DNA of 32,000 bases. Source: Bacillota bacterium. GTDB taxonomy: Bacteria > Bacillota > Clostridia > Christensenellales > Christensenellaceae. Under the pieces are notes generated by a model. That model was not told the DNA's origin. It ran no database searches and worked only from the letters and a program-made list of their open reading frames with translations. This document shows, in pieces, positions 235 through 30,227 of the stretch. The DNA is taken from positions 4,721 to 36,720 of the forward strand of contig JAEYKI010000013.1 of assembly GCA_023408315.1 (NCBI GenBank). Reading direction: 5' to 3'. Position 1 is the first letter of the stretch; the number at the start of each line of letters is the position of its first letter. The translations under genes and the position numbers were made by a program.

Positions 235-1056
235 TTATACCTCCGACCAAACTTCTATCTCAAGGCCTTCTAAAGGTTCTATCTCCAAACTCTCTTTATT
301 TAAGCTCCTGTGTACTTGTGCAGAAGAATACTGTCCACTCTTGCAGTTATGCTTCCACCATATAACTTTAGTCACTACCATGCTTCCAGACGGACGCGCA
401 GCAGATACATCGTTTTCAAATATTGTCTTTAGTGCTTCATGCAATTTTTCTGCATCATCGTCGGAGAACCCGGTCTTTTCTGCAAGCTGGCAGTTAATAC
501 TACCAAACGTCACATAGATACCATTGTCAATACGATGCTTCATGCCCATTGTGTCGGGAGCTTTTTTATCAGGATCGGGCTTATTGGTTTCCAAATTCAC
601 ACTTTTTGTAATTTGCATACTGCTCACGTCAACTGGCTCAACACTGACAGCAGTTTGAATTGTGACTGGGCCACGAATCCCAATAGATACAGCATTCTCA
701 TCATCAGACTTCCCAAATGCAAAAACCTGTCCGAAAGTTCGTACATCATACCAAGTTCTGCATGCTGTTGCGGCTTGCGCCTGACGATCTTTTACCTTCT
801 TAATTTCCTCATTGCCGTCAAACCGTGCCTTCAGACTTCTATATTCATCTCTGCGGTTTTCATCTGACTGTACGAAAATTTCTTCCCCCATATCCTGCAA
901 TCGGTTACGCAGCTTTCTTTTAAGACATACGTCGGATACCTCTCCAAATCCTTCATAGTCGGTGCGCGGTCGGTTACCGTTAAGCGGGTCCCCGTTAGGA
1001 TTCGCTTTTTTCACCGAGAAAACCAGTGCAAAATCAATTTTACTCGTCAGACTCAT
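235..1056 (-). CDS. cas7: Cas7, type I-C (Csd2 family)
   Basis: [33 protein letters not shown].. carries the Csd2/Cas7 N-terminal ANPNGDP signature. I prefer the second ATG (1054-1056) because GGAGGT lies 7 nt upstream; the longest ORF starts at 1071. The position after cas8c fits a I-C operon. Confidence 0.9.
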   Translation of the reverse strand: MSLTSKIDFALVFSVKKANPNGDPLNGNRPRTDYEGFGEVSDVCLKRKLRNRLQDMGEEIFVQSDENRRDEYRSLKARFDGNEEIKKVKDRQAQAATACRTWYDVRTFGQVFAFGKSDDENAVSIGIRGPVTIQTAVSVEPVDVSSMQITKSVNLETNKPDPDKKAPDTMGMKHRIDNGIYVTFGSINCQLAEKTGFSDDDAEKLHEALKTIFENDVSAARPSGSMVVTKVIWWKHNCKSGQYSSAQVHRSLNKESLEIEPLEGLEIEVWSEV

Positions 1057-2989
1057 TTTTATTACCTCCATTAATGCTTTTACTATTTAACTTCAATGCC
1101 TGCCGCTGCAAAAAATAACCCATCAAATAACTGCCGTCCAATGGCCGGTCGGACTCAAATTCTCCTTCGCGGAAGTTTGCCATGATGTTACCTATTTGAT
1201 TCATATACCAATTCGCGCCGTCCAACTGCTGTATATATGGATTCAACTGTTCCCACAGTGTTTTCCATGTTCTAAACGGATGTTGCGAAAACACTGTCAT
1301 ATATCTTACGGCGTTTGTAGCACGCGCGTCATCCTTGGCATTTCCCTGTTTATATCGTGCTGAAGATTCAATTCTGTCTGCCACCGCAAGCAAGCGCCCA
1401 TAAAGATAATCCCGATTTGTTCTATTTTCTTCCAACGACAATTGAAACTCATCTCCTTTTTCATAGTAATACTTTTTCCATAACCCGCAGGTTACGCCTA
1501 AGACTTCTTCCCAATCACGCCAACGTAAAACAGCGCTTTTTGAATCCTTATTCTCCATCCCAAGCGGGTTTGATGCTCTGTAAAGCATAGTATTCAGCAT
1601 ATCTTTTGGGATTTTCTCTCCATCCATGATGCAATGCAGCAACCGTTCACGAATGCCCTTTTCCAATTTATCATAAGATTCACTTCCCTTGGCGGGTTTT
1701 TTGCCAAGCACCGCCTTAGATATCCTTTTAACGGAAGGTGCGCCAATAAAGCAGTTATTCTCCCATACCTCATTTTGACTGTTCTTAAAAAGCTGATACC
1801 ATCTGCATTGTTCATGCCAATTAGCAATTTTTTCATGATATTCATCTTCTGGCAATTCGCGGTGATAGGTAACGGATAATCTTCCTGTAGTAGCAGCATC
1901 CACTGCTAAAATAACTATACGGCGGGTATGCTCTTTTAAACGGTTTGCATTTCCAGTACCGTATAAAATAGTACGCAGCGCAAGGCCATAATCCAAATCG
2001 GTAACAGCACCCGCCTCACGTAACCTGTCAGCATCTGTTTTAATTTTGTTTTGGTAAATGCCGAAACTATCCTCAAAAGGATCTTCTACATGAATTCGTT
2101 TATCTATTGCCCATGCAACAACAGCCTGCGTATCACAAAGGGTTCCTCTTGTTGCGATCAGCCATCTTAATGCTTGATGAAGTTTTTGCAGTGCGTCAAA
2201 ACTTAAAGTTACCGAAGGAATAAGATCACTAAATTTGCCACTATAAATAATTCTGCCGTTACTTTTTTCATTTGCTGAAATTAATTTTGCGCCATACGTT
2301 TTATTATTAATACCTTTTGGATATTTATCAGAAATAGCAGCCCTTTCTCCCGTCAAGTAACATATGCCTTGATCGGTTTGCTGTGAAATTAAATATCCCA
2401 AATATTTTTCCTGAACTGATTTATCCAGCCAAAGTCTATCCTCAAAATCGCCTGATACTCTTACTTTGAATCTCACACCATAATCAGCCATTACGAATTT
2501 TATTTTTCCATCAGCCTTTTTTGTTTTTTTTAAATCATCATCCGTATATAATTGGGTTTTCTTTAAATCCTGAATAACCATCTTTTTGATTACATACATG
2601 TAAACCGATTCAATTTTTGGGTGGCAATAAGGTGTCATACACCAAGCCTGCAAGCCTTTAATATACTGATCAAAATGTTTGGCATATTGTTTACCGCTGT
2701 ATGTATCATAGTCACCGGCAATATACTTCAATTGGTCAAACAGCGGATGCGGATATATACCGCTGGTTCGGCTTGCAGCGGATTCCTCAGTACATGGAAT
2801 AGAGATATATTCAGGAATGTCCAATTTTTCTGCAGATATGAAATTCCCATCTCCATCTAAAGTAATGGTTACGTTTATTTTTAGTAGTGTATAGCCAACA
2901 GGTAACAAAGCATTACCATCATTATCAGGTATCCCGACAATCTCCTCACATGCTTCATATGTATTAAGTAAATTTTCAGCCCAACTCAA
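1040..2989 (-). CDS. cas8c: Cas8c large subunit, type I-C (Csd1 family)
   Basis: A 649-aa ORF lies between cas5 and cas7 and overlaps both (4 nt with cas5). Size, position and N-terminus ([22 protein letters not shown]) fit Csd1. In I-C systems Cas11c is known to be made by internal translation of cas8c; I could not identify that internal start here. Confidence 0.85.
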
Positions 2990-3744
2990 ACGTCCTCGCC
3001 TCCTTCCTCAAGTATTCTCATGAGTTCTTCTTCTTTCAATCCGGTAAAATTCTCACCATCTTCAAAAGGCTTTGCTTTCATTGGCTTAATAAACCTTGAT
3101 ACATAGCGCTTTGATTCGTCGGGGAATTCGCAGGGCGCGGGGAATTCAATTACTCCGTCCCGCATAACGCAAGGCCATAAGCGCACCGCAAGTTCATCAC
3201 AGCCTGTTTCATCGGGATAATCAAAGCCGTGGAATATAAAGCCAAAATCAATTTCTCCATAATTATCATAGAAGCCTATACCCGTATTGAATTTACATGG
3301 CTCAACATACCCCTGGCATTCCCGCGTTCCTAAAAAAATGTCCCGTCGGCCTCCGCGCTGGATCATGCGTTTTGCAATGTTATGATGTTTGTTTTCGTTC
3401 CTGTCCTGTACAAACTCAGGCCGGTTCATATTCCATTCAAAATGCGCAAATACTTGATAACGGACGTCTTTCAAATAGGTGTAATACGCTAAATCATTGC
3501 CTGCTCTAGTGTATTTGATTGGCCGTATCCCTTTAGATTCCGTCTGTATCTTGTTTATGATGCGAACGGCGTCAATGTACCAAATAATGGTAGGTTTCCA
3601 ATAGACACTTTCAATTATCCCTTTTAAAGCCTGATATGTAGGAACCTGATACGAACACTTTTCGCCGCCAACACGCGTGATGGGATCTGAGAATAATGCA
3701 TTTCTTCCATGCACTACAAACTCCACCGAATTTCTTTTCTCCAT
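2986..3744 (-). CDS. cas5: Cas5, type I-C (Cas5d, pre-crRNA endoribonuclease type)
   Basis: [47 protein letters not shown]...[15 protein letters not shown]...[20 protein letters not shown] closely tracks remembered Cas5d sequences. Confidence 0.9.
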
Positions 3745-3762
3745 GTTTGCTTTCTCCTTTCT

Positions 3763-6111
3763 TTAGTAATATAGAAACTTCATGTCTTTTTCCAAATTTA
3801 CACCGCGTTCGATATCATAAAAATCTTTGTCCAGCAAAAGCAAGTCAACATCCAAATTCATTAATGCACCTGCCTCATTCAATTTATCAATTTGATACTG
3901 GTATAGTGAGACTGTATATCGCGCCATCTTCCGCAGTATGGCTGTTTTTTCATAAAGATTTGCTTTTTGATATTTCTCCGCTAGTGCAGCGCCTTGATTG
4001 TATGGTATCAAAACACTGGTTGAGTTATTTTCTATAACACAAAAGTTTTCGCCTGCGGTTTGCAAAGCTTGAAGGTATTGTGGCGTCCTTTCACCATGAT
4101 GAGTCCTGTTTTTATATGCATCTTTGCCTTTTTGATTAACAGATAGCAAATCATACAGATCGCAATTTTGTCCAATACTGTAATTCATTTCACCAGCGCG
4201 TTTATAAAAATATTCATTGTAATACCGATCCAAAGCCTTCTTACAGAGTAAATCCTCGTATTTCTCTTCAATAATCCGTTCTGTAATTCCAGTTCCGATT
4301 TTAATATCCGGCAATCTAGAAAGGTTTTCATCTGTTAAATTTATAATATAAACATCCCTCCCCTTAGGGTCTTCTCCGTGCCGGTTGCATCTCCCTGCTG
4401 CCTGTGCAATACTGTCTAGCCCCGCACATGCACGTACAACACAGCCAAAAGAAATATCCACACCTGCCTCTATAAGCTGGCTGCTGATGCATATAATAGG
4501 TTCATGCAATTTTATTTTTTCTTTCATTTCGTTAAGTTTTTCAATTCTGTGTGCCGGGCACATTAATGTACTCAGGTGATAAAGCGTTACAGGGAGTCCA
4601 CGCTCAGTTACACGCGCTTTGACTATACTAAATAGTTCTAAGACATTTTTCTTTGTATTCAGTATCACTAAACAATTTCCGTTGTCTTGCTGTTTTTCCA
4701 ATACAAAATCCGCTAGAGATTCACAAGTATATTTTTTTGTAATAGGGATAATGTGTGTTCTATTAAGGGAGGTAAAATCATTTTCCATATTTTGAACTAA
4801 ATTTGAACCGGCTAAACGGATGCTATGCTCTACACAGTTCAATAAAGGCTGTGTTGCCGAACATAGTAAAACAGTTGACTTCCCAAATATAGATATAAAA
4901 TTTACTGCATCATTAAACAGATTTACGCATTTAACAGGTAATGACTGAATTTCGTCAAAAATCAATACCGCATTTGCCATGTTATGAAGTTTGCGAAGTT
5001 TGGATGCTTTCTCAGAAAATACACTTTCAAGAAACTGAACTGCTGTTGTAATCACAATTGGTGCATCCCACCGGTCTGTAAGCAATTTTATTTCTTGCAC
5101 GCTTTCTTCATCTTCAGGCAGCACTAGATTGGAGTGGTGTTCTAAAACACGCATATCATCTGTAGTGAAACCCAAAGCCTCCCTTATAGTATCTGCAGTT
5201 TGCTCCAGAATAGATAAGTATGGGATTATATAAATAATCCGCTCCATCCCATGTATTCTGGCATGTTCCAGTGCAAAGCGAAGACTTGATAGCGTTTTTC
5301 CCCCTCCTGTTGGTACTTCCAATTGATAAATTCCTTGCAGACGGTTTGCGCCACGGTAACATTTTTCTGAAATTTGATGTCTTATTTGATCAATCGGCTT
5401 ATTTGAATGTACGCTTTTTTGGACAAGATAGCTTTCTAAAATATTTAAATAATCATTCCAAGGCGGTTGAATCAAATTAGATTCGCTTTTTGCCCCAATT
5501 TCAAAACAATATGCATTATACCTGTCAGCGTCCACTAAACATGAAAACAAATATTTTGTCAGCATATGAATCATAAATGCAATATTCAGTGTTTGAGAAT
5601 GGCATATTTCAATAAAGTGCTGTAACTCACAATAAGCCTCTTCAAGCATAGCTTTTAAATCATTTGATTGGCAGCAATTTTTGGTGAACTTAGTTTTTAC
5701 TTCTTCAAAATGCAAGTCGTTTGTATCTTGTGCGGATATTCGTTTGAGAAAAGGCATATCACCATCAGGTGAAAGTCCGTCCATTAATACACCATGATGA
5801 CCAGCAATGCAAAGCCCAATCATTTCTGCAATAAAAGTAGCTCGTTTATCGCTTTCAATTGCTATTTCGAAAATATATTTGGCTCCTTGTGTTGAATGTA
5901 CTATACTCCCCCGCTTTCTCTTGTTCTGCTCGTATAAATAAGCTAAAAATGCTTGAGAGTATTTACCCATATCATGCAGAAGTGATATGATACGAGCAGT
6001 TTGTGTAAATCCCATAATTTCAGCCCATTTTGAAGCTAACTCTGCCACTTCCACTAAATGCACAACAGTTGTCTGTTTACGGTTATCATTTGTAATCCTT
6101 GATATGTACAC
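3763..6111 (-). CDS. cas3: Cas3 (HD nuclease + SF2 helicase)
   Basis: There is an N-terminal HD domain (LLHDMGKY, IAGHHG), a Walker A (EVPTGGGKT), a DExx box (LIFDEIQ) and a helicase C motif (SSQLIEAGVDISF, AAGRCNRHG). The start is GTG with AGGCGGA upstream. It is the first gene of the I-C operon. Confidence 0.92.
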   Translation of the reverse strand: MYISRITNDNRKQTTVVHLVEVAELASKWAEIMGFTQTARIISLLHDMGKYSQAFLAYLYEQNKRKRGSIVHSTQGAKYIFEIAIESDKRATFIAEMIGLCIAGHHGVLMDGLSPDGDMPFLKRISAQDTNDLHFEEVKTKFTKNCCQSNDLKAMLEEAYCELQHFIEICHSQTLNIAFMIHMLTKYLFSCLVDADRYNAYCFEIGAKSESNLIQPPWNDYLNILESYLVQKSVHSNKPIDQIRHQISEKCYRGANRLQGIYQLEVPTGGGKTLSSLRFALEHARIHGMERIIYIIPYLSILEQTADTIREALGFTTDDMRVLEHHSNLVLPEDEESVQEIKLLTDRWDAPIVITTAVQFLESVFSEKASKLRKLHNMANAVLIFDEIQSLPVKCVNLFNDAVNFISIFGKSTVLLCSATQPLLNCVEHSIRLAGSNLVQNMENDFTSLNRTHIIPITKKYTCESLADFVLEKQQDNGNCLVILNTKKNVLELFSIVKARVTERGLPVTLYHLSTLMCPAHRIEKLNEMKEKIKLHEPIICISSQLIEAGVDISFGCVVRACAGLDSIAQAAGRCNRHGEDPKGRDVYIINLTDENLSRLPDIKIGTGITERIIEEKYEDLLCKKALDRYYNEYFYKRAGEMNYSIGQNCDLYDLLSVNQKGKDAYKNRTHHGERTPQYLQALQTAGENFCVIENNSTSVLIPYNQGAALAEKYQKANLYEKTAILRKMARYTVSLYQYQIDKLNEAGALMNLDVDLLLLDKDFYDIERGVNLEKDMKFLYY

Positions 6112-6572: not shown

Positions 6573-6603
6573 CATCATACACTATTTCAGAGGTGGTGAT
6601 TTG

Positions 6604-7896
6604 ATGCGAACGATACTCCATGTAGACCTAAACAATTTTTACGCTTCGGTAGAGTGTTTATACCGCCCGGAGCTGCGCGGCAAGCCTGTGGCGGTATGCG
6701 GGGACCCGGAATTGCGGCACGGTATCGTTCTGGCAAAGAATTATCCGGCAAAGGCAACGGGGATCACCACCGGCGAGGCCATCTGGCAGGCAAAACAGAA
6801 ATGCCCCGGCCTCGTTGTACTTCCGCCAAACTTTTCACTGTATCTGGAGTTCGCGCGGCATGCCCGCAAAATATATACCGACTACGCAAGCCGCATTGAG
6901 CCTTTCGGCTTGGACGAAGCGTGGCTTGACGTGACCGGGAGCAAAACACTCTTTGGCGACGGTGAGGCAATCGCAAACCGCATCCGGGAGCGCATCAAAT
7001 CCGAACTTGGCGTCACCGCTTCGGCGGGCGTCAGCTTCAACAAGGTGTTTGCAAAACTGGGATCAGATATGAAAAAACCGGATGCAACCACTGTAATCTC
7101 CGTGCTAAACTATAAAGAGAAGGTTTGGCCACTGCCCGTTCAGGAGCTTCTCTATGTGGGCCGCGCCACCCAGCGCAAGCTGAACCACAAATGTATATAC
7201 ACCATAGGCGATCTGGCGCAGGCCGACGCCAAAAACCTGGCTTACTCCCTGGGCAAGTGGGGCGCGGTGATCCACGACTTTGCAAACGGAAGGGATTGTT
7301 CCCAGGTTGCCAATTTCGGCGAAGAATCAATCATTAAGTCCATCGGCAACAGCACAACCACCCCTCGGAACCTTGTCTGCGCAAAGGATGTGCGCCTTGT
7401 ATTCTATGTCCTGGCCGAGAGCGTCGCCGCCAGGCTCCGGGAACACGGCTTTGTATGCCGCACAGTGCAAATCCATATACGGGACGCAAGCTTGCTTTCC
7501 TTTGAGCGGCAGGGCAAACTGACCAGGCCGACGAATTTATCAAACGATATCTTTCGCCTGGCGAATGAATTGTTCACAAAAAACTACAGGTGGAACGACC
7601 ATATCCGTTCCCTGGGCCTGCGGGCCTGCGACCTTGCGCCGTCAAACCTGGCCGTACAAACCAGCCTGTTTTTGAATGAGGAACAACTGGCCAAACAACA
7701 AAGGCTGGAGGAAACGCTGGATACCCTGCGCCGCCGTTACGGTTACTACTGCCTGCAGCGCGCGGTAATGCTGGAAGACAAACCCCTGCACATCAACCCC
7801 AAGGACGATCATGTGATCCACCCCATCGTCCTGTTCAATGGGCCGCTGCCGGTGAGCGACTTTACTACAAACGAGACGGGCGGTGCTGACTCATGA
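6604..7896 (+). CDS. Y-family DNA polymerase (DinB/UmuC-type translesion polymerase)
   Basis: ILHVDLNNFYASVECLYRPELRGKPVAVCGD.. and ..FGLDEAWLDVTGS are canonical Y-family palm motifs. I prefer the ATG at 6604 because the SD is 7 nt upstream; the ORF track starts at TTG 6601. Confidence 0.9.
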   Translation: MRTILHVDLNNFYASVECLYRPELRGKPVAVCGDPELRHGIVLAKNYPAKATGITTGEAIWQAKQKCPGLVVLPPNFSLYLEFARHARKIYTDYASRIEPFGLDEAWLDVTGSKTLFGDGEAIANRIRERIKSELGVTASAGVSFNKVFAKLGSDMKKPDATTVISVLNYKEKVWPLPVQELLYVGRATQRKLNHKCIYTIGDLAQADAKNLAYSLGKWGAVIHDFANGRDCSQVANFGEESIIKSIGNSTTTPRNLVCAKDVRLVFYVLAESVAARLREHGFVCRTVQIHIRDASLLSFERQGKLTRPTNLSNDIFRLANELFTKNYRWNDHIRSLGLRACDLAPSNLAVQTSLFLNEEQLAKQQRLEETLDTLRRRYGYYCLQRAVMLEDKPLHINPKDDHVIHPIVLFNGPLPVSDFTTNETGGADS

Positions 7897-26952: not shown

Positions 26953-27014
26953 CGCAACGCCTCCCTTCCGCTTCGGTGCAGCCCGGAGCTGCCCGAAAAA
27001 AAACAATATTCGTT

Positions 27015-27032
27015 GCCAACCGCAGGCGGTTG
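27015..27032. promoter_or_regulatory. Perfect inverted repeat CCAACCGC-AG-GCGGTTGG between mobC and the relaxase gene
   Basis: The arms are 8 bp with a 2-nt spacer, flanked by A8/T8 runs. Function is unknown; a relaxosome site or an RNA hairpin are possibilities. Confidence 0.35.
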
Positions 27033-27079
27033 GAAAAAAAACCTTCCGGTATGCCTTGCGGGACAAAAGAAACTCAGGG

Positions 27080-27450: not shown

Positions 27451-27579
27451 GCGGCTGTGCCGCTCAGGGTTTTAGGGCGCGCGGCCCCTGACAAGTGCAA
27501 AATCCCAGGATTTTGCGATACTTGCACAGGAAATGAACCGGTTCCCGGTTCACGCCTGCGGCGGCGGCCCTGGGGCCGC
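27451..27579. promoter_or_regulatory. Candidate oriT / mobC promoter region with four inverted repeats
   Basis: The repeats are GCGGC-TGT-GCCGC (27451-27463), GCAAAATCC-CA-GGATTTTGC (27497-27516), GAACCGG-TTC-CCGGTTC (27535-27551) and GCGGCC-CTGG-GGCCGC (27564-27579). The region is immediately upstream of mobC-relaxase, the usual oriT position. The nic site was not identified. Confidence 0.45.
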
Positions 27580-28702: not shown

Positions 28703-29581
28703 TCACCGCCTTTCCCGGTTGAGCCGTATCATGTTATTGATCTGCGACGTCCAGTGCGTTTCGCTGGTCGCCCTGGCGTTGTACAGCGCTGTCAAAAGAT
28801 AGTTCCGCACATTCCGCACCGGCTCGCCCAACGCGGTGATCCCGTTGATCACGCTGGAGATATCGTTGTGCCGCAGCTCCAGAAACCGTTGCCGCACGGC
28901 CTGGGCGTCCATCACCGCGCCGTTCACCTTGAATGTCTTTTCCTCCCCGCACAGCACGTCCATCATCAGCATATATATTGATTCTGCCAGCTTGCTGACC
29001 TGCGGCTCGTAAGACATCAGCATGTCGTACTCGATGTTTTCTTTCACCAAAAAGGAATATCTGTCCATCCGATCCATCCATTCCGTACCTACTGTAGGAT
29101 GGATAGATAGATCTATATCCTTTATAGACTTGTTAATATTAGTGTCCGAAATTACCGTGTCCGAAGATTTGAGACACGGTTGGTTTGCCGTGTCCGAAAA
29201 TTTCGGACACGGTGAAAATCCCTCTCTTATCACATTTTTAGGGTTTGCCACAAGTATGTATACGTTACGCTTATACTTTCCGGTACTCCGTTTTTGTCCA
29301 ACTCGAACATAATCATACTTTTTAAGCTCTTCAAGGTATTTATAATACGTGTCTTTATTCACCCCCAAATCTTTCACTATGGTATCTCTGCCGGGAAAAG
29401 CCGTATTACCTGAACCTGCATAGCTGCAAAAGTATGCATAGATCGCTTTCGCTTGAATTGGCAGGCGGCGGTCTTTCATAACTATTTTGGGAATAGTTCC
29501 AAACCCCCTCGCATTTACGCCTTCAATCCGTATTTCGTCCACCAGGCTTTCTTCTACGCCCTTGCTATTGTTCTTGTCCAT
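28703..29581 (-). CDS. Winged-HTH Rep-like / replisome-organizer-like protein
   Basis: The N-terminus GFGTIPKIVMKDRRLPIQAKAIYAYFCSYAG.GNTAFPGRDTIVKDLGVNKDTYYKYLEELKKYDYV is a typical wHTH of plasmid/ICE replication-initiator-like proteins. The central linker is encoded by DNA palindromes. The C-terminal domain is uncharacterized. Confidence 0.6.
   Translation of the reverse strand: MDKNNSKGVEESLVDEIRIEGVNARGFGTIPKIVMKDRRLPIQAKAIYAYFCSYAGSGNTAFPGRDTIVKDLGVNKDTYYKYLEELKKYDYVRVGQKRSTGKYKRNVYILVANPKNVIREGFSPCPKFSDTANQPCLKSSDTVISDTNINKSIKDIDLSIHPTVGTEWMDRMDRYSFLVKENIEYDMLMSYEPQVSKLAESIYMLMMDVLCGEEKTFKVNGAVMDAQAVRQRFLELRHNDISSVINGITALGEPVRNVRNYLLTALYNARATSETHWTSQINNMIRLNRERR
29142..29212. repeat. 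Half-site plus two adjacent 25-bp palindromes (GTGTCCGAA motif) inside the Rep-like CDS
   Basis: GTGTCCGAA is at 29142-29150. CCGTGTCCGAAGATTTGAGACACGG is at 29155-29179 (imperfect). CCGTGTCCGAAAATTTCGGACACGG is at 29188-29212 (perfect). Confidence 0.85.
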
Positions 29582-29594
29582 GCGTGATCCCCCT

Positions 29595-29849
29595 TCAAAT
29601 TGCTGTCATTGGTATTTCAAGTTCCTGGACAATCATGTCGCAAACTTCACTGGAATCAAGGAGTAACAGAAACAGCAGCCGCTGCCCCTCCACCACCTGT
29701 ACGCGCCCATCCAGAAGATAATGCTTGCGGTACTCTTCCTCCGGCAACTGCCGGAACACCGCAAAAGCAATCTCTCCGTTCGGGCGCATAACTGGCAGTG
29801 TCGTATAAGCTGGCTCCCTCTGTTCGTCCCCGATCCGCTCTACCGTCAT
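29595..29849 (-). CDS. 84-aa protein of unknown function, first gene after the repeat array
   Basis: The ATG at 29847-29849 lies 4 nt after AAGGAGGTGA (MTVERIGDEQREPAYTTLPVMRPNGEIAFAVF..). There is a 13-nt gap to the Rep-like gene, so the two probably form an operon. Confidence 0.55.
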   Translation of the reverse strand: MTVERIGDEQREPAYTTLPVMRPNGEIAFAVFRQLPEEEYRKHYLLDGRVQVVEGQRLLFLLLLDSSEVCDMIVQELEIPMTAI

Positions 29850-29881
29850 CTCGTCACCTCCTTGTATGCTGTTTGCAGGAT

Positions 29882-29931
29882 ACAAAAAACGCCCAAGGCT
29901 GTACGGGTTTTGATGCGTTAGCCTGGGCGTT
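29882..29931 (-). terminator. Terminator-like hairpin in the leader of the 84-aa/Rep-like operon (possible attenuator)
   Basis: On the minus strand AACGCCCAGGC, a 21-nt loop and GCCTTGGGCGTT are followed by TTTTTTGT. The SD of the 84-aa gene starts about 20 nt later. Confidence 0.5.
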
Positions 29932-29938
29932 CGGTTTT

Positions 29939-30227
29939 ATGTACCTGCCAGGTACATGGTTTTGCCGTTTTTTATGTACCTGGGATGTACAATGTACCTG
30001 CTGGGTACATGGTTTGGCTGTTTTTATGTACCTGGGATGTACAATGTACCTGCCGGGTACATGGCTTTGCTGTTTTTTATGTACCTGAGATGTACAATGT
30101 ACCTGCCGGGTACATGGTTTTACCATTTTTTATGTACCTGGGATGTACAATGTACCTGCTGGGTACATGGTTTTACTGTTTTTTATGTACCTGAGATGTA
30201 CAATGTACCTGCCGGGTACATGGCTTA
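29939..30227. repeat. One half unit plus five tandem 52-53-bp direct repeats built from ATGTACC/GGTACAT heptads (right array)
   Basis: Units start at 29974, 30026, 30079, 30132 and 30185, with a half unit at 29939. The consensus is ATGTACCTG(G/A)GATGTACAATGTACCTGC(C/T)GGGTACATGG(T/C)TTT.C.GTTTTTT. The last unit abuts the helicase stop codon (30225-30227). Confidence 0.95.

Follow-up and report, generated by a model that had tools for sequence, protein, structure and literature searches.

A candidate replication origin inside an HTH_36 and DUF6017 initiator-like gene of a conjugative element from Christensenellaceae

A replication origin can lie inside the gene for its own initiator. In phage lambda, ori is found within gene O and carries four dyad-symmetric iterons, and the RepA_N initiators RepA of pAD1, PrgW of pCF10 and RepN of pLS32 also have an intragenic origin. 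The oriL of phage SPP1 lies within gene 38, which encodes G38P, and combines direct repeats with an AT-rich unwinding element (PMC6316719). The RepA protein of pSK41 binds four Rep boxes placed centrally in its own gene. It is built from a DNA-binding N-terminal part of about 120 residues, a linker encoded by the origin, which is dispensable, and a helical, DnaD-like C-terminal domain (PMC5703833). In the integrative conjugative elements (ICEs) that have been studied (ICEBs1, Tn916 and ICESt3), rolling circle replication starts at oriT, relies on the relaxase and involves a non-coding single-strand origin (PMC5812530), while RepA_N and ParA genes have been noted on ICEs of the Tn5252 and Tn1549 families and TnGBS uses a RepA_N gene for theta replication (PMC4701971). 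Here we describe a 292-residue initiator-like gene in a 32,000-nucleotide stretch (the window) of contig JAEYKI010000013.1 from a member of the Christensenellaceae. The linker between its two domains is encoded by palindromic DNA that very probably binds protein, and we favour reading this DNA as an origin of the type known from lambda O, SPP1 gene 38 and pSK41 RepA.

Two palindromes of 25 bp lie in the gene, 8 nt apart (29180-29187). Dyad 1, at 29188-29212, is CCGTGTCCGAAAATTTCGGACACGG, with 12-bp arms perfectly complementary around a single central A; dyad 2, at 29155-29179, is CCGTGTCCGAAGATTTGAGACACGG, with arms complementary at 9 of 12 positions. The half-site GTGTCCGAA is seen again at 29142-29150, 4 nt from the second palindrome, giving a plus strand from 29142 to 29212 of GTGTCCGAAA-tta-CCGTGTCCGAAGATTTGAGACACGG-ttggtttg-CCGTGTCCGAAAATTTCGGACACGG. 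The peptides encoded on the minus strand, PCPKFSDT, PCLKSSDT and ISDT, fall within ..SPCPKFSDTANQPCLKSSDTVISDT.. of the reading frame. The earlier note on this DNA had described a perfect and an imperfect palindrome with an adjacent half-site, and all of its coordinates and arms were reproduced. The short palindromes that it placed at 29085-29120 are real (CCTACTGTAGG at 29088-29098 and ATAGATCTAT at 29107-29116), and the linker to which it assigned the large palindromes, between a winged helix-turn-helix and a C-terminal domain, corresponds to residues 117-165 of the AlphaFold (AF2) model. Absent from it were the AT-rich tract and the TAATATTAACA box, which belong to the same conserved block as the dyads. 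The features are as follows.

28703-29581, minus strand: HTH_36 and DUF6017 initiator-like gene, 292 residues, from the open reading frame list and Pfam; it houses all the sites
29252-29545, minus strand: DNA coding for the N-terminal winged-helix domain (residues 13-110), from the AF2 model
29087-29233, minus strand: DNA coding for the linker (residues 117-165; pLDDT below 50, predicted disordered), in which all blocks conserved at the DNA level lie
28709-29086, minus strand: DNA coding for the helical C-terminal domain (DUF6017, residues 166-291), from the AF2 model
29188-29212, no strand: dyad 1, a perfect 12+1+12 palindrome, CCGTGTCCGAAA-A-TTTCGGACACGG, encoding PCPKFSDT
29155-29179, no strand: dyad 2, an imperfect copy whose centre is 33 bp from that of dyad 1, encoding PCLKSSDT
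29142-29151, minus strand: third half-site, TTTCGGACAC, unpaired, 15 bp from the right arm of dyad 2, encoding ISDT
29131-29141, minus strand: TAATATTAACA box (gene strand), conserved, directly after the last half-site
29097-29141, no strand: AT-rich tract, a candidate unwinding element (G+C 27%, against 47% for the gene), ending with the conserved block GATCTATCTATCCATCC (29097-29113)

The dyads exceed chance expectation. The longest perfect inverted repeat of the window has 12-bp arms, against 10 for the longest in 40 composition-preserving shuffles of it, and arms of at least 10 occur four times where the shuffles gave a mean of 0.12. The exact 9-mer half-site has four copies in the window, all at the cluster of dyads and half-site, and in the whole 3.74-Mb genome the dyad CCGTGTC-N11-GACACGG is restricted to dyads 1 and 2. 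On other contigs CCGTGTCCGAA occurs alone four times, each time in an unrelated context, and we took these copies as chance. We also rejected a DnaA box: by eye, the TAATATTAACA and TCTATCCATCC blocks agree with TTATCCACA at 6 of 9 positions only.

The sites are selected as DNA, not as protein. We compared the DNA of ten close homologues (44-86% identity), fetched singly, and of 80 more distant loci, referred to below by L numbers. A scan of genome contigs gave three loci only, all with tandem N-terminal domains, and a class-level genome search found matches in 7 of 399 genomes, all of them distant. The two dyads and the half-site are kept at the same place in 11/11 close homologues, with dyad words that are specific to the lineage: CCGTGTCCGAAA/TTTCGGACACGG in the window and L091, CCGTGTCCTG/CAGGACACGG in L092, L096 and L098, CCGTGTACCAA/TTGCGACACGG in L095 and L011, and CCGTACCTCAA/TTGCGGTACGG in L100. 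In the window, L015, L092 and L098 the starts of paired CCG-N19-CGG units are separated by 33 bp. The encoded peptide varies in step with the dyad words (PCPKFSDT, PCPATQDT in L092, PCTNFCDT, PYLNICGT in L100) and therefore follows the DNA, not the reverse.

The codons point the same way. Pairwise codon identity over conserved-residue columns is 0.79 for linker residues 122-161 and 0.43 elsewhere (Mann-Whitney p = 4e-8; p = 8e-9 when the two closest pairs are left out). In the linker the CCG, TGT, GAC and ACG codons vary little or not at all, while the residues that they encode are spelled with all available codons in the rest of the gene. The GAC codon of the half-site is identical in 11/11 homologues and the AAC codon of the TAATATTAACA box in 12/12 close homologues, and the TCT and ATC codons of an L-S-I peptide are frozen in the GATCTATCTATCCATCC block of the AT-rich tract. 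Fixed positions interleave with free ones every few bases of the alignment, and this pattern is therefore the result of selection on the sites and not of a recently exchanged segment. When the gene was recoded with the peptide fixed and its own codon usage, 10 of 2000 recodings (0.5%) reached the palindrome observed in dyad 1. Homologues that keep the peptide and lose the palindromes, the outcome that the earlier note had set against its own suggestion, are the opposite of what is seen: the peptide drifts, and the dyads, their symmetry and the synonymous positions are kept.

These results leave little room for selection of a peptide motif, PCPxxSDT, with the palindromes as its by-product. A PC....DT repeat can indeed be recognised in many homologues. 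However, the motif is not kept where the dyad is (PYLNICGT in L100, PCPATQDT in L092), the synonymous positions are invariant, few recodings reach the observed palindrome, the linker is predicted to be disordered, and the equivalent segment of pSK41 RepA is dispensable as protein (PMC5703833). We regard this explanation as scarcely credible.

Dyad symmetry is maintained through compensatory changes. We collected every CCG-N19-CGG 25-mer of the linkers, which gave 43 distinct units, drawn from about 30 loci. Of the nine inner pairs, 5.6 are complementary in these units and 2.45 where the pattern occurs in other parts of the loci. Their alignment scores 0.364 for covariation; shuffled units score 0.152, with 0 of 500 reaching the observed value, and slid partners 0.06-0.13. 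There are 90 double-change cells against 40. Compensatory changes would suit pairing in RNA equally well, and in several second dyads a change of GAC to GAT gives a G-U wobble on the sense strand, so that hairpins in the mRNA, serving for example stability or a translational pause between the domains, have to be considered. They are very improbable, as the half-site and the lineages with direct repeats need no pairing and the frozen AT-rich blocks are unstructured. An Rfam scan matched no family at the dyads, with only sub-threshold miRNA noise on a 53-bp array upstream, and a promoter and terminator pattern scan found no terminator-like tail at the dyads and no promoter-like site near them. 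The conserved, unpaired half-site argues for protein binding over a hairpin.

The gene is present in a single copy in the genome. Pfam places HTH_36 at residues 39-92 (E 3e-11) and DUF6017 at residues 171-283 (E 6.5e-20). Residues 14-271 match PHROG 7882, 'DnaD-like helicase loader' (E 2.7e-24); PHROGs 270, 186, 428, 4221 and 8102 match at E 1e-6 to 2e-12, several 'replication initiation protein' PHROGs are among the matches, and a 'replication initiation O-like' PHROG matches weakly (E 5.5e-4). The AF2 model was made from 24 homologues and is moderate in quality, its mean pLDDT being 69.6. In it pLDDT is mostly 76-89 over residues 31-110 and 60-68 over residues 11-30, with a helix-strand pattern typical for a winged helix, and the C-terminal domain has pLDDT 74-91 over residues 171-270 and lower values past 270. 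Residues 124-147, encoded by the dyads, fall centrally in the predicted disordered segment. The N-terminal winged helix of the model is the presumed reader of the dyads and the DUF6017 domain the presumed recruiter of host replication proteins; longer relatives have DnaD_N/DnaB_2 domains in place of DUF6017.

The nearest Foldseek match is the two-domain primosome protein DnaB of Geobacillus (5wtn; probability 0.99, E 4e-3), with a TM score of 0.27-0.30, which is low because both domains of our flexible two-domain model float. There are weak matches to the RepA N-terminal domains 4pql, 5kbj and 4pt7 (TM on the target 0.40-0.48, E about 1, probability 0.6-0.8) and to the DnaD N-terminal domain 2v79 (TM on the target 0.39), and the best match among viral models (BFVD) is a 'Replication initiator A family protein' (E 3e-10). 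Pfam DnaD_N matches 8 of 24 family members weakly (best E 0.009), and a profile search of PDB sequences gave chance matches only, such as legumain (E 0.24). By its PHROG matches the protein belongs to the HTH_36/DnaD-like group of replisome organizers; it is not filed as RepA_N because no family member matches Pfam RepA_N. Given that group, lambda O and SPP1 G38P are analogues no worse than the RepA_N initiators.

The arrangement of repeats behind the DNA-binding domain extends to the wider family. The 120-nt window richest in repeats starts between -60 and +150 nt from the end of the DNA-binding domain in 38 of 50 non-redundant relatives, where 24% would be expected (p = 9e-15). Of the 12 exceptions, seven have a tandem pair of N-terminal domains, and in these the repeats come after the second copy. 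The longer relatives of 420-610 residues (L001, L031, L042, L053-L059, L077, L079 and L083) have such a tandem pair, with repeat-rich DNA behind the second domain. The repeats are either dyads in a common frame of CCG, an A/T-rich centre and CGG, or simple direct repeats, one example being five copies of GGGATACC at a 15-nt period. Among the 41 single-domain relatives, 35 have direct and 25 inverted 8-mer repeats. The 45-nt window of lowest GC falls in the linker in 28 of the 50 relatives (25% expected, p = 4e-6), and 25 of the 50 have a TAATAWTAACA box, always after the repeats and sometimes itself repeated. In L008, L046, L055, L072 and others the linker repeats the box at a 15-nt period (AGTATTAATAATAAC three times, read as SINNN), suggesting that the unwinding region holds sites of a second class. 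As the AT-rich box and tract are conserved and their codons frozen, the Asn/Ile-rich 'TNINKSIKDIDLSI' peptide is the translation of an AT-rich DNA signal.

The type of dyad tracks the clustering of the N-terminal domain and not that of the C-terminal domain. The gene of L092 (3001-3876) is a natural mosaic: as far as the dyads its DNA is 49-72% identical to that of the window, and between the AT box and the stop codon the identity is 98-100%. Its dyads are those of its N-terminal relatives. By this comparison it appears to be a recombinant that took its N-terminal domain and dyads from another lineage, and the position of the junction, at the end of the dyad cluster, suggests that the linker is a joint at which modules are swapped. 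Across lineages the putative recognition helix, residues 76-88, varies together with the repeated DNA word: KDTYYK is found with GGACAC, KD(F/Y)YYK with CAGGACAC, K(G/N)TYYAHFNP with GGGATACC, and RRK(A/V)I with GCACCAC. This fits the N-terminal domain and the dyad being a cognate pair. The pairing is something that we infer, because mere physical linkage would yield the same pattern.

Taken together, these observations make an intragenic iteron origin the more probable account of the locus. The dyads and half-site would be iterons, or Rep boxes: the protein that has them in its linker-coding DNA would bind them through its winged-helix N-terminal domain. With the adjoining TAATATTAACA box and AT-rich tract (29097-29141) these sites would form a vegetative origin inside the initiator gene. 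Dimers of the N-terminal domain would bind the dyads, the adjoining AT-rich tract would open, and the DnaD/DnaB-like C-terminal domain (DUF6017) would bring in the host helicase-loading machinery. The excised circular element could thus replicate as an episome, independently of rolling circle replication driven by the relaxase. It is very likely that the sites are functional protein-binding DNA; the identity of the binding protein, the melting and the replication of the element from this site are steps that we infer.

The proposed origin is a further example of the classical design in which the origin lies inside the initiator gene. The features of that design found here are a two-domain initiator with a predicted flexible linker, at least two sites in the linker, conservation at the DNA level and an adjoining AT-rich tract. 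As in lambda O and SPP1 G38P, the sites are in linker-coding DNA, the AT-rich tract follows directly, and an N-terminal binder is joined to a C-terminal recruiter of the helicase loader, both roles being predicted here. Unlike those phages, the present element is an integrative conjugative one, it has two dyads and a half-site, its C-terminal domain is DUF6017, and no gene for a partner helicase loader or helicase adjoins. The protein shares its three parts with pSK41 RepA, with a weak likeness of fold in the N-terminal domain (to 4pql, 5kbj and 4pt7), whereas its sites are 25-bp dyads in a CCG...CGG frame and not the Rep boxes of pSK41. Like the rolling circle replication of ICEs, the proposed origin would let an excised element persist as an episome, but through an initiator and an iteron origin separate from oriT.

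Several results weigh against this reading. The ICEs described so far replicate by rolling circle from oriT, and a theta-type origin is therefore not needed for episomal copies. There are only two and a half sites, below the number in most iteron origins. The RepA_N-type likeness drawn in the earlier note stands for the three-part layout, which is that of pSK41 RepA (PMC5703833), and fails for the Pfam family itself: RepA_N (PF06970) matches 0/24 family members even at E <= 1. No NCBIfam model matches the protein, and matches to solved structures are weak, with a best E of 4e-3. No parA gene was found beside the gene, also when the contig beyond the window was inspected, an inspection made without profile annotation. 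The recoding test reaches significance in the window and in close relatives and fails to do so in many distant relatives with imperfect dyads; as the test is weak there, distant relatives were judged by the tests of repeat position and covariation. Finally, the correlation between dyad type and N-terminal domain could be due to physical linkage alone.

A homologue in an EF62phi-type Enterococcus phage-plasmid (L101), 30% identical over 88% of the protein, bears on the function. It adjoins parA, and a CI-like repressor gene separates it from a second, lytic module with DnaD and a DnaC-like ATPase. In its linker, inverted and direct repeats of the TCAAAA(T/C)GAC type precede AAAATTAACA repeats. 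Judged by gene order, this position appears to be that of a plasmid-maintenance initiator. Two heptad arrays in its parA-rep intergenic region (1852-2159), GTGTACA/GTAGACA, resemble the operator-like ATGTACC/GGTACAT heptad arrays found upstream of the window's operon at 29916-30226; unlike the window's gene, the homologue stands beside parA in an extrachromosomal phage-plasmid and has other repeat words. A further homologue, on an E. faecium plasmid, lies in an IS1216 composite beside resistance genes, a setting uninformative on function.

The upstream arrays bring in another explanation, that the intragenic sites are an operator only, used for autoregulation or handcuffing, through which the protein or another binder encoded by the element tunes its own operon without any start of replication. 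HTH_36 is a generic winged-helix family, an intragenic operator would leave the same DNA conservation and dyad symmetry, and the element already has a separate operator-like array of dyads at 29916-30226. The intragenic sites, however, begin some way inside the gene, at 370 nt and remote from any promoter, and the pattern scan found nothing promoter-like nearby. An operator would also leave unexplained the family-wide AT-rich tract and TAATAWTAACA box after the repeats, the annotation of the family as replication initiators, and the rep-par position of the homologue in phage-plasmids. We consider it unlikely. The type of upstream array is independent of the type of intragenic dyad: ATGTACC arrays are common to the window and L092, whose dyads differ, and ATGTTCAT arrays are common to L100, L093 and L094, the dyads of L100 being different. 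A different protein therefore probably reads the arrays. It could be the product of the small open reading frame directly upstream (29595-29885), which has no Pfam, PHROG or NCBIfam match; an open reading frame of 74-88 residues occupies this position in most relatives.

The neighbouring genes are those of a conjugative system. The gene is followed by a NikA/MobC-like gene and a MobA/VirD2-type relaxase gene, with a deaminase gene inserted before them, and further on by genes for a type IV secretion system coupling protein, a VirB4-like ATPase, an NlpC/P60 hydrolase and SSB, a binder of single-stranded DNA. Upstream lie the small open reading frame, an array of six 53-bp repeats and a 1776-residue SNF2-like gene, so labelled from its homology to Pfam-annotated homologues in L092, L093 and L095. 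The order in relatives is a large helicase/methylase or ArdC-like gene, the small open reading frame, the initiator-like gene, mobC, the relaxase gene, DUF3801 and the coupling protein gene, an order that forms the backbone of a conjugative element. Upstream of mobC there is a 20-bp palindrome, GCAAAATCCCAGGATTTTGC, at 27497-27516, and its GCAAAATG-N4-CATTTTGC dyad is also found upstream of mobC in 6 of 10 relatives (L091, L092, L093, L095, L096 and L100); the palindrome is a candidate oriT inverted repeat or site for MobC or the relaxosome. An inverted repeat at 27013-27036, TTGCCAACCGCAGGCGGTTGGAAA, between mobC and the start of the relaxase gene and also present in L091 and L092, is another candidate, for oriT or for an attenuator. 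Towards the left side of the window are a type I-C CRISPR-Cas set (Cas7, Csd1/Cas8c, Cas5d and Cas3) at 235-6111 and a Y-family (ImpB/MucB) polymerase gene at 6601-7896.

This setting suits a function in single-stranded DNA, with the hairpins forming on the incoming strand as a single-strand origin, as a primosome-assembly site that a DnaD-like protein might help, or as a hairpin promoter for early genes. The gene adjoins mobC and the relaxase gene, ArdC-like or SNF2/methylase-type genes lie upstream in relatives, and it is on the presumed oriT side that would probably enter first. As single-stranded DNA, a 111-nt stretch folds with -22.9 kcal/mol (z = -5.5, with 0 of 200 shuffles equally stable), and the linkers of 29 of the 41 single-domain relatives fold with z <= -2. 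Single-strand origins are known in ICEBs1 and Tn916 (PMC5812530). Yet 12 of the 41 relatives have direct repeats only, without inverted 8-mers, the direct repeats being the more general form, and the unpaired third half-site is conserved at synonymous positions. Phages and non-conjugative phage-plasmids share the anatomy, a hairpin is lacking in the AT-rich box, and the known single-strand origins are non-coding where the dyads here are coding. A single-strand function is thus a doubtful explanation. A bolder scheme, which we put forward as a speculation of similarly low probability, is an establishment device of the leading region: dyads folded on the strand that enters would be recognised by the DnaD-like protein, which would assemble a primosome there to make the complementary strand, as a protein-assisted single-strand origin. 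More broadly, elements of the Tn1549 family would be theta-replicating episomes that swap cassettes of N-terminal domain and dyads by recombination at the linker, as the mosaic gene of L092 suggests.

Our literature searches, including a full-text search for 'DUF6017', found no description of DUF6017/HTH_36 proteins, and searches on Tn1549 and replication initiators found nothing on this gene. With the iteron origin as the favoured reading, these proteins, whose genes adjoin mobC and the relaxase gene in a large family of Tn1549-like elements of gut Clostridia, gain a testable function, and the probable cis-acting site is narrowed to 29097-29212, a stretch of about 115 bp. DNA signals account for the unusual low-complexity peptides ('xxxDT ... 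NINN'), which are their by-product. The pattern also gives an annotation rule, by which repeats and a TAATAWTAACA/AT-rich box directly after the DNA-binding domain would predict an origin in hundreds of phage, plasmid and ICE relatives. What the analysis adds is this family-wide rule and a defined 115-bp candidate origin in widespread conjugative elements of the gut. If the site is an origin, these elements, once excised, could maintain and multiply themselves as plasmids by another route than relaxase-driven rolling circle replication, with a bearing on their stability, copy number, incompatibility and spread.

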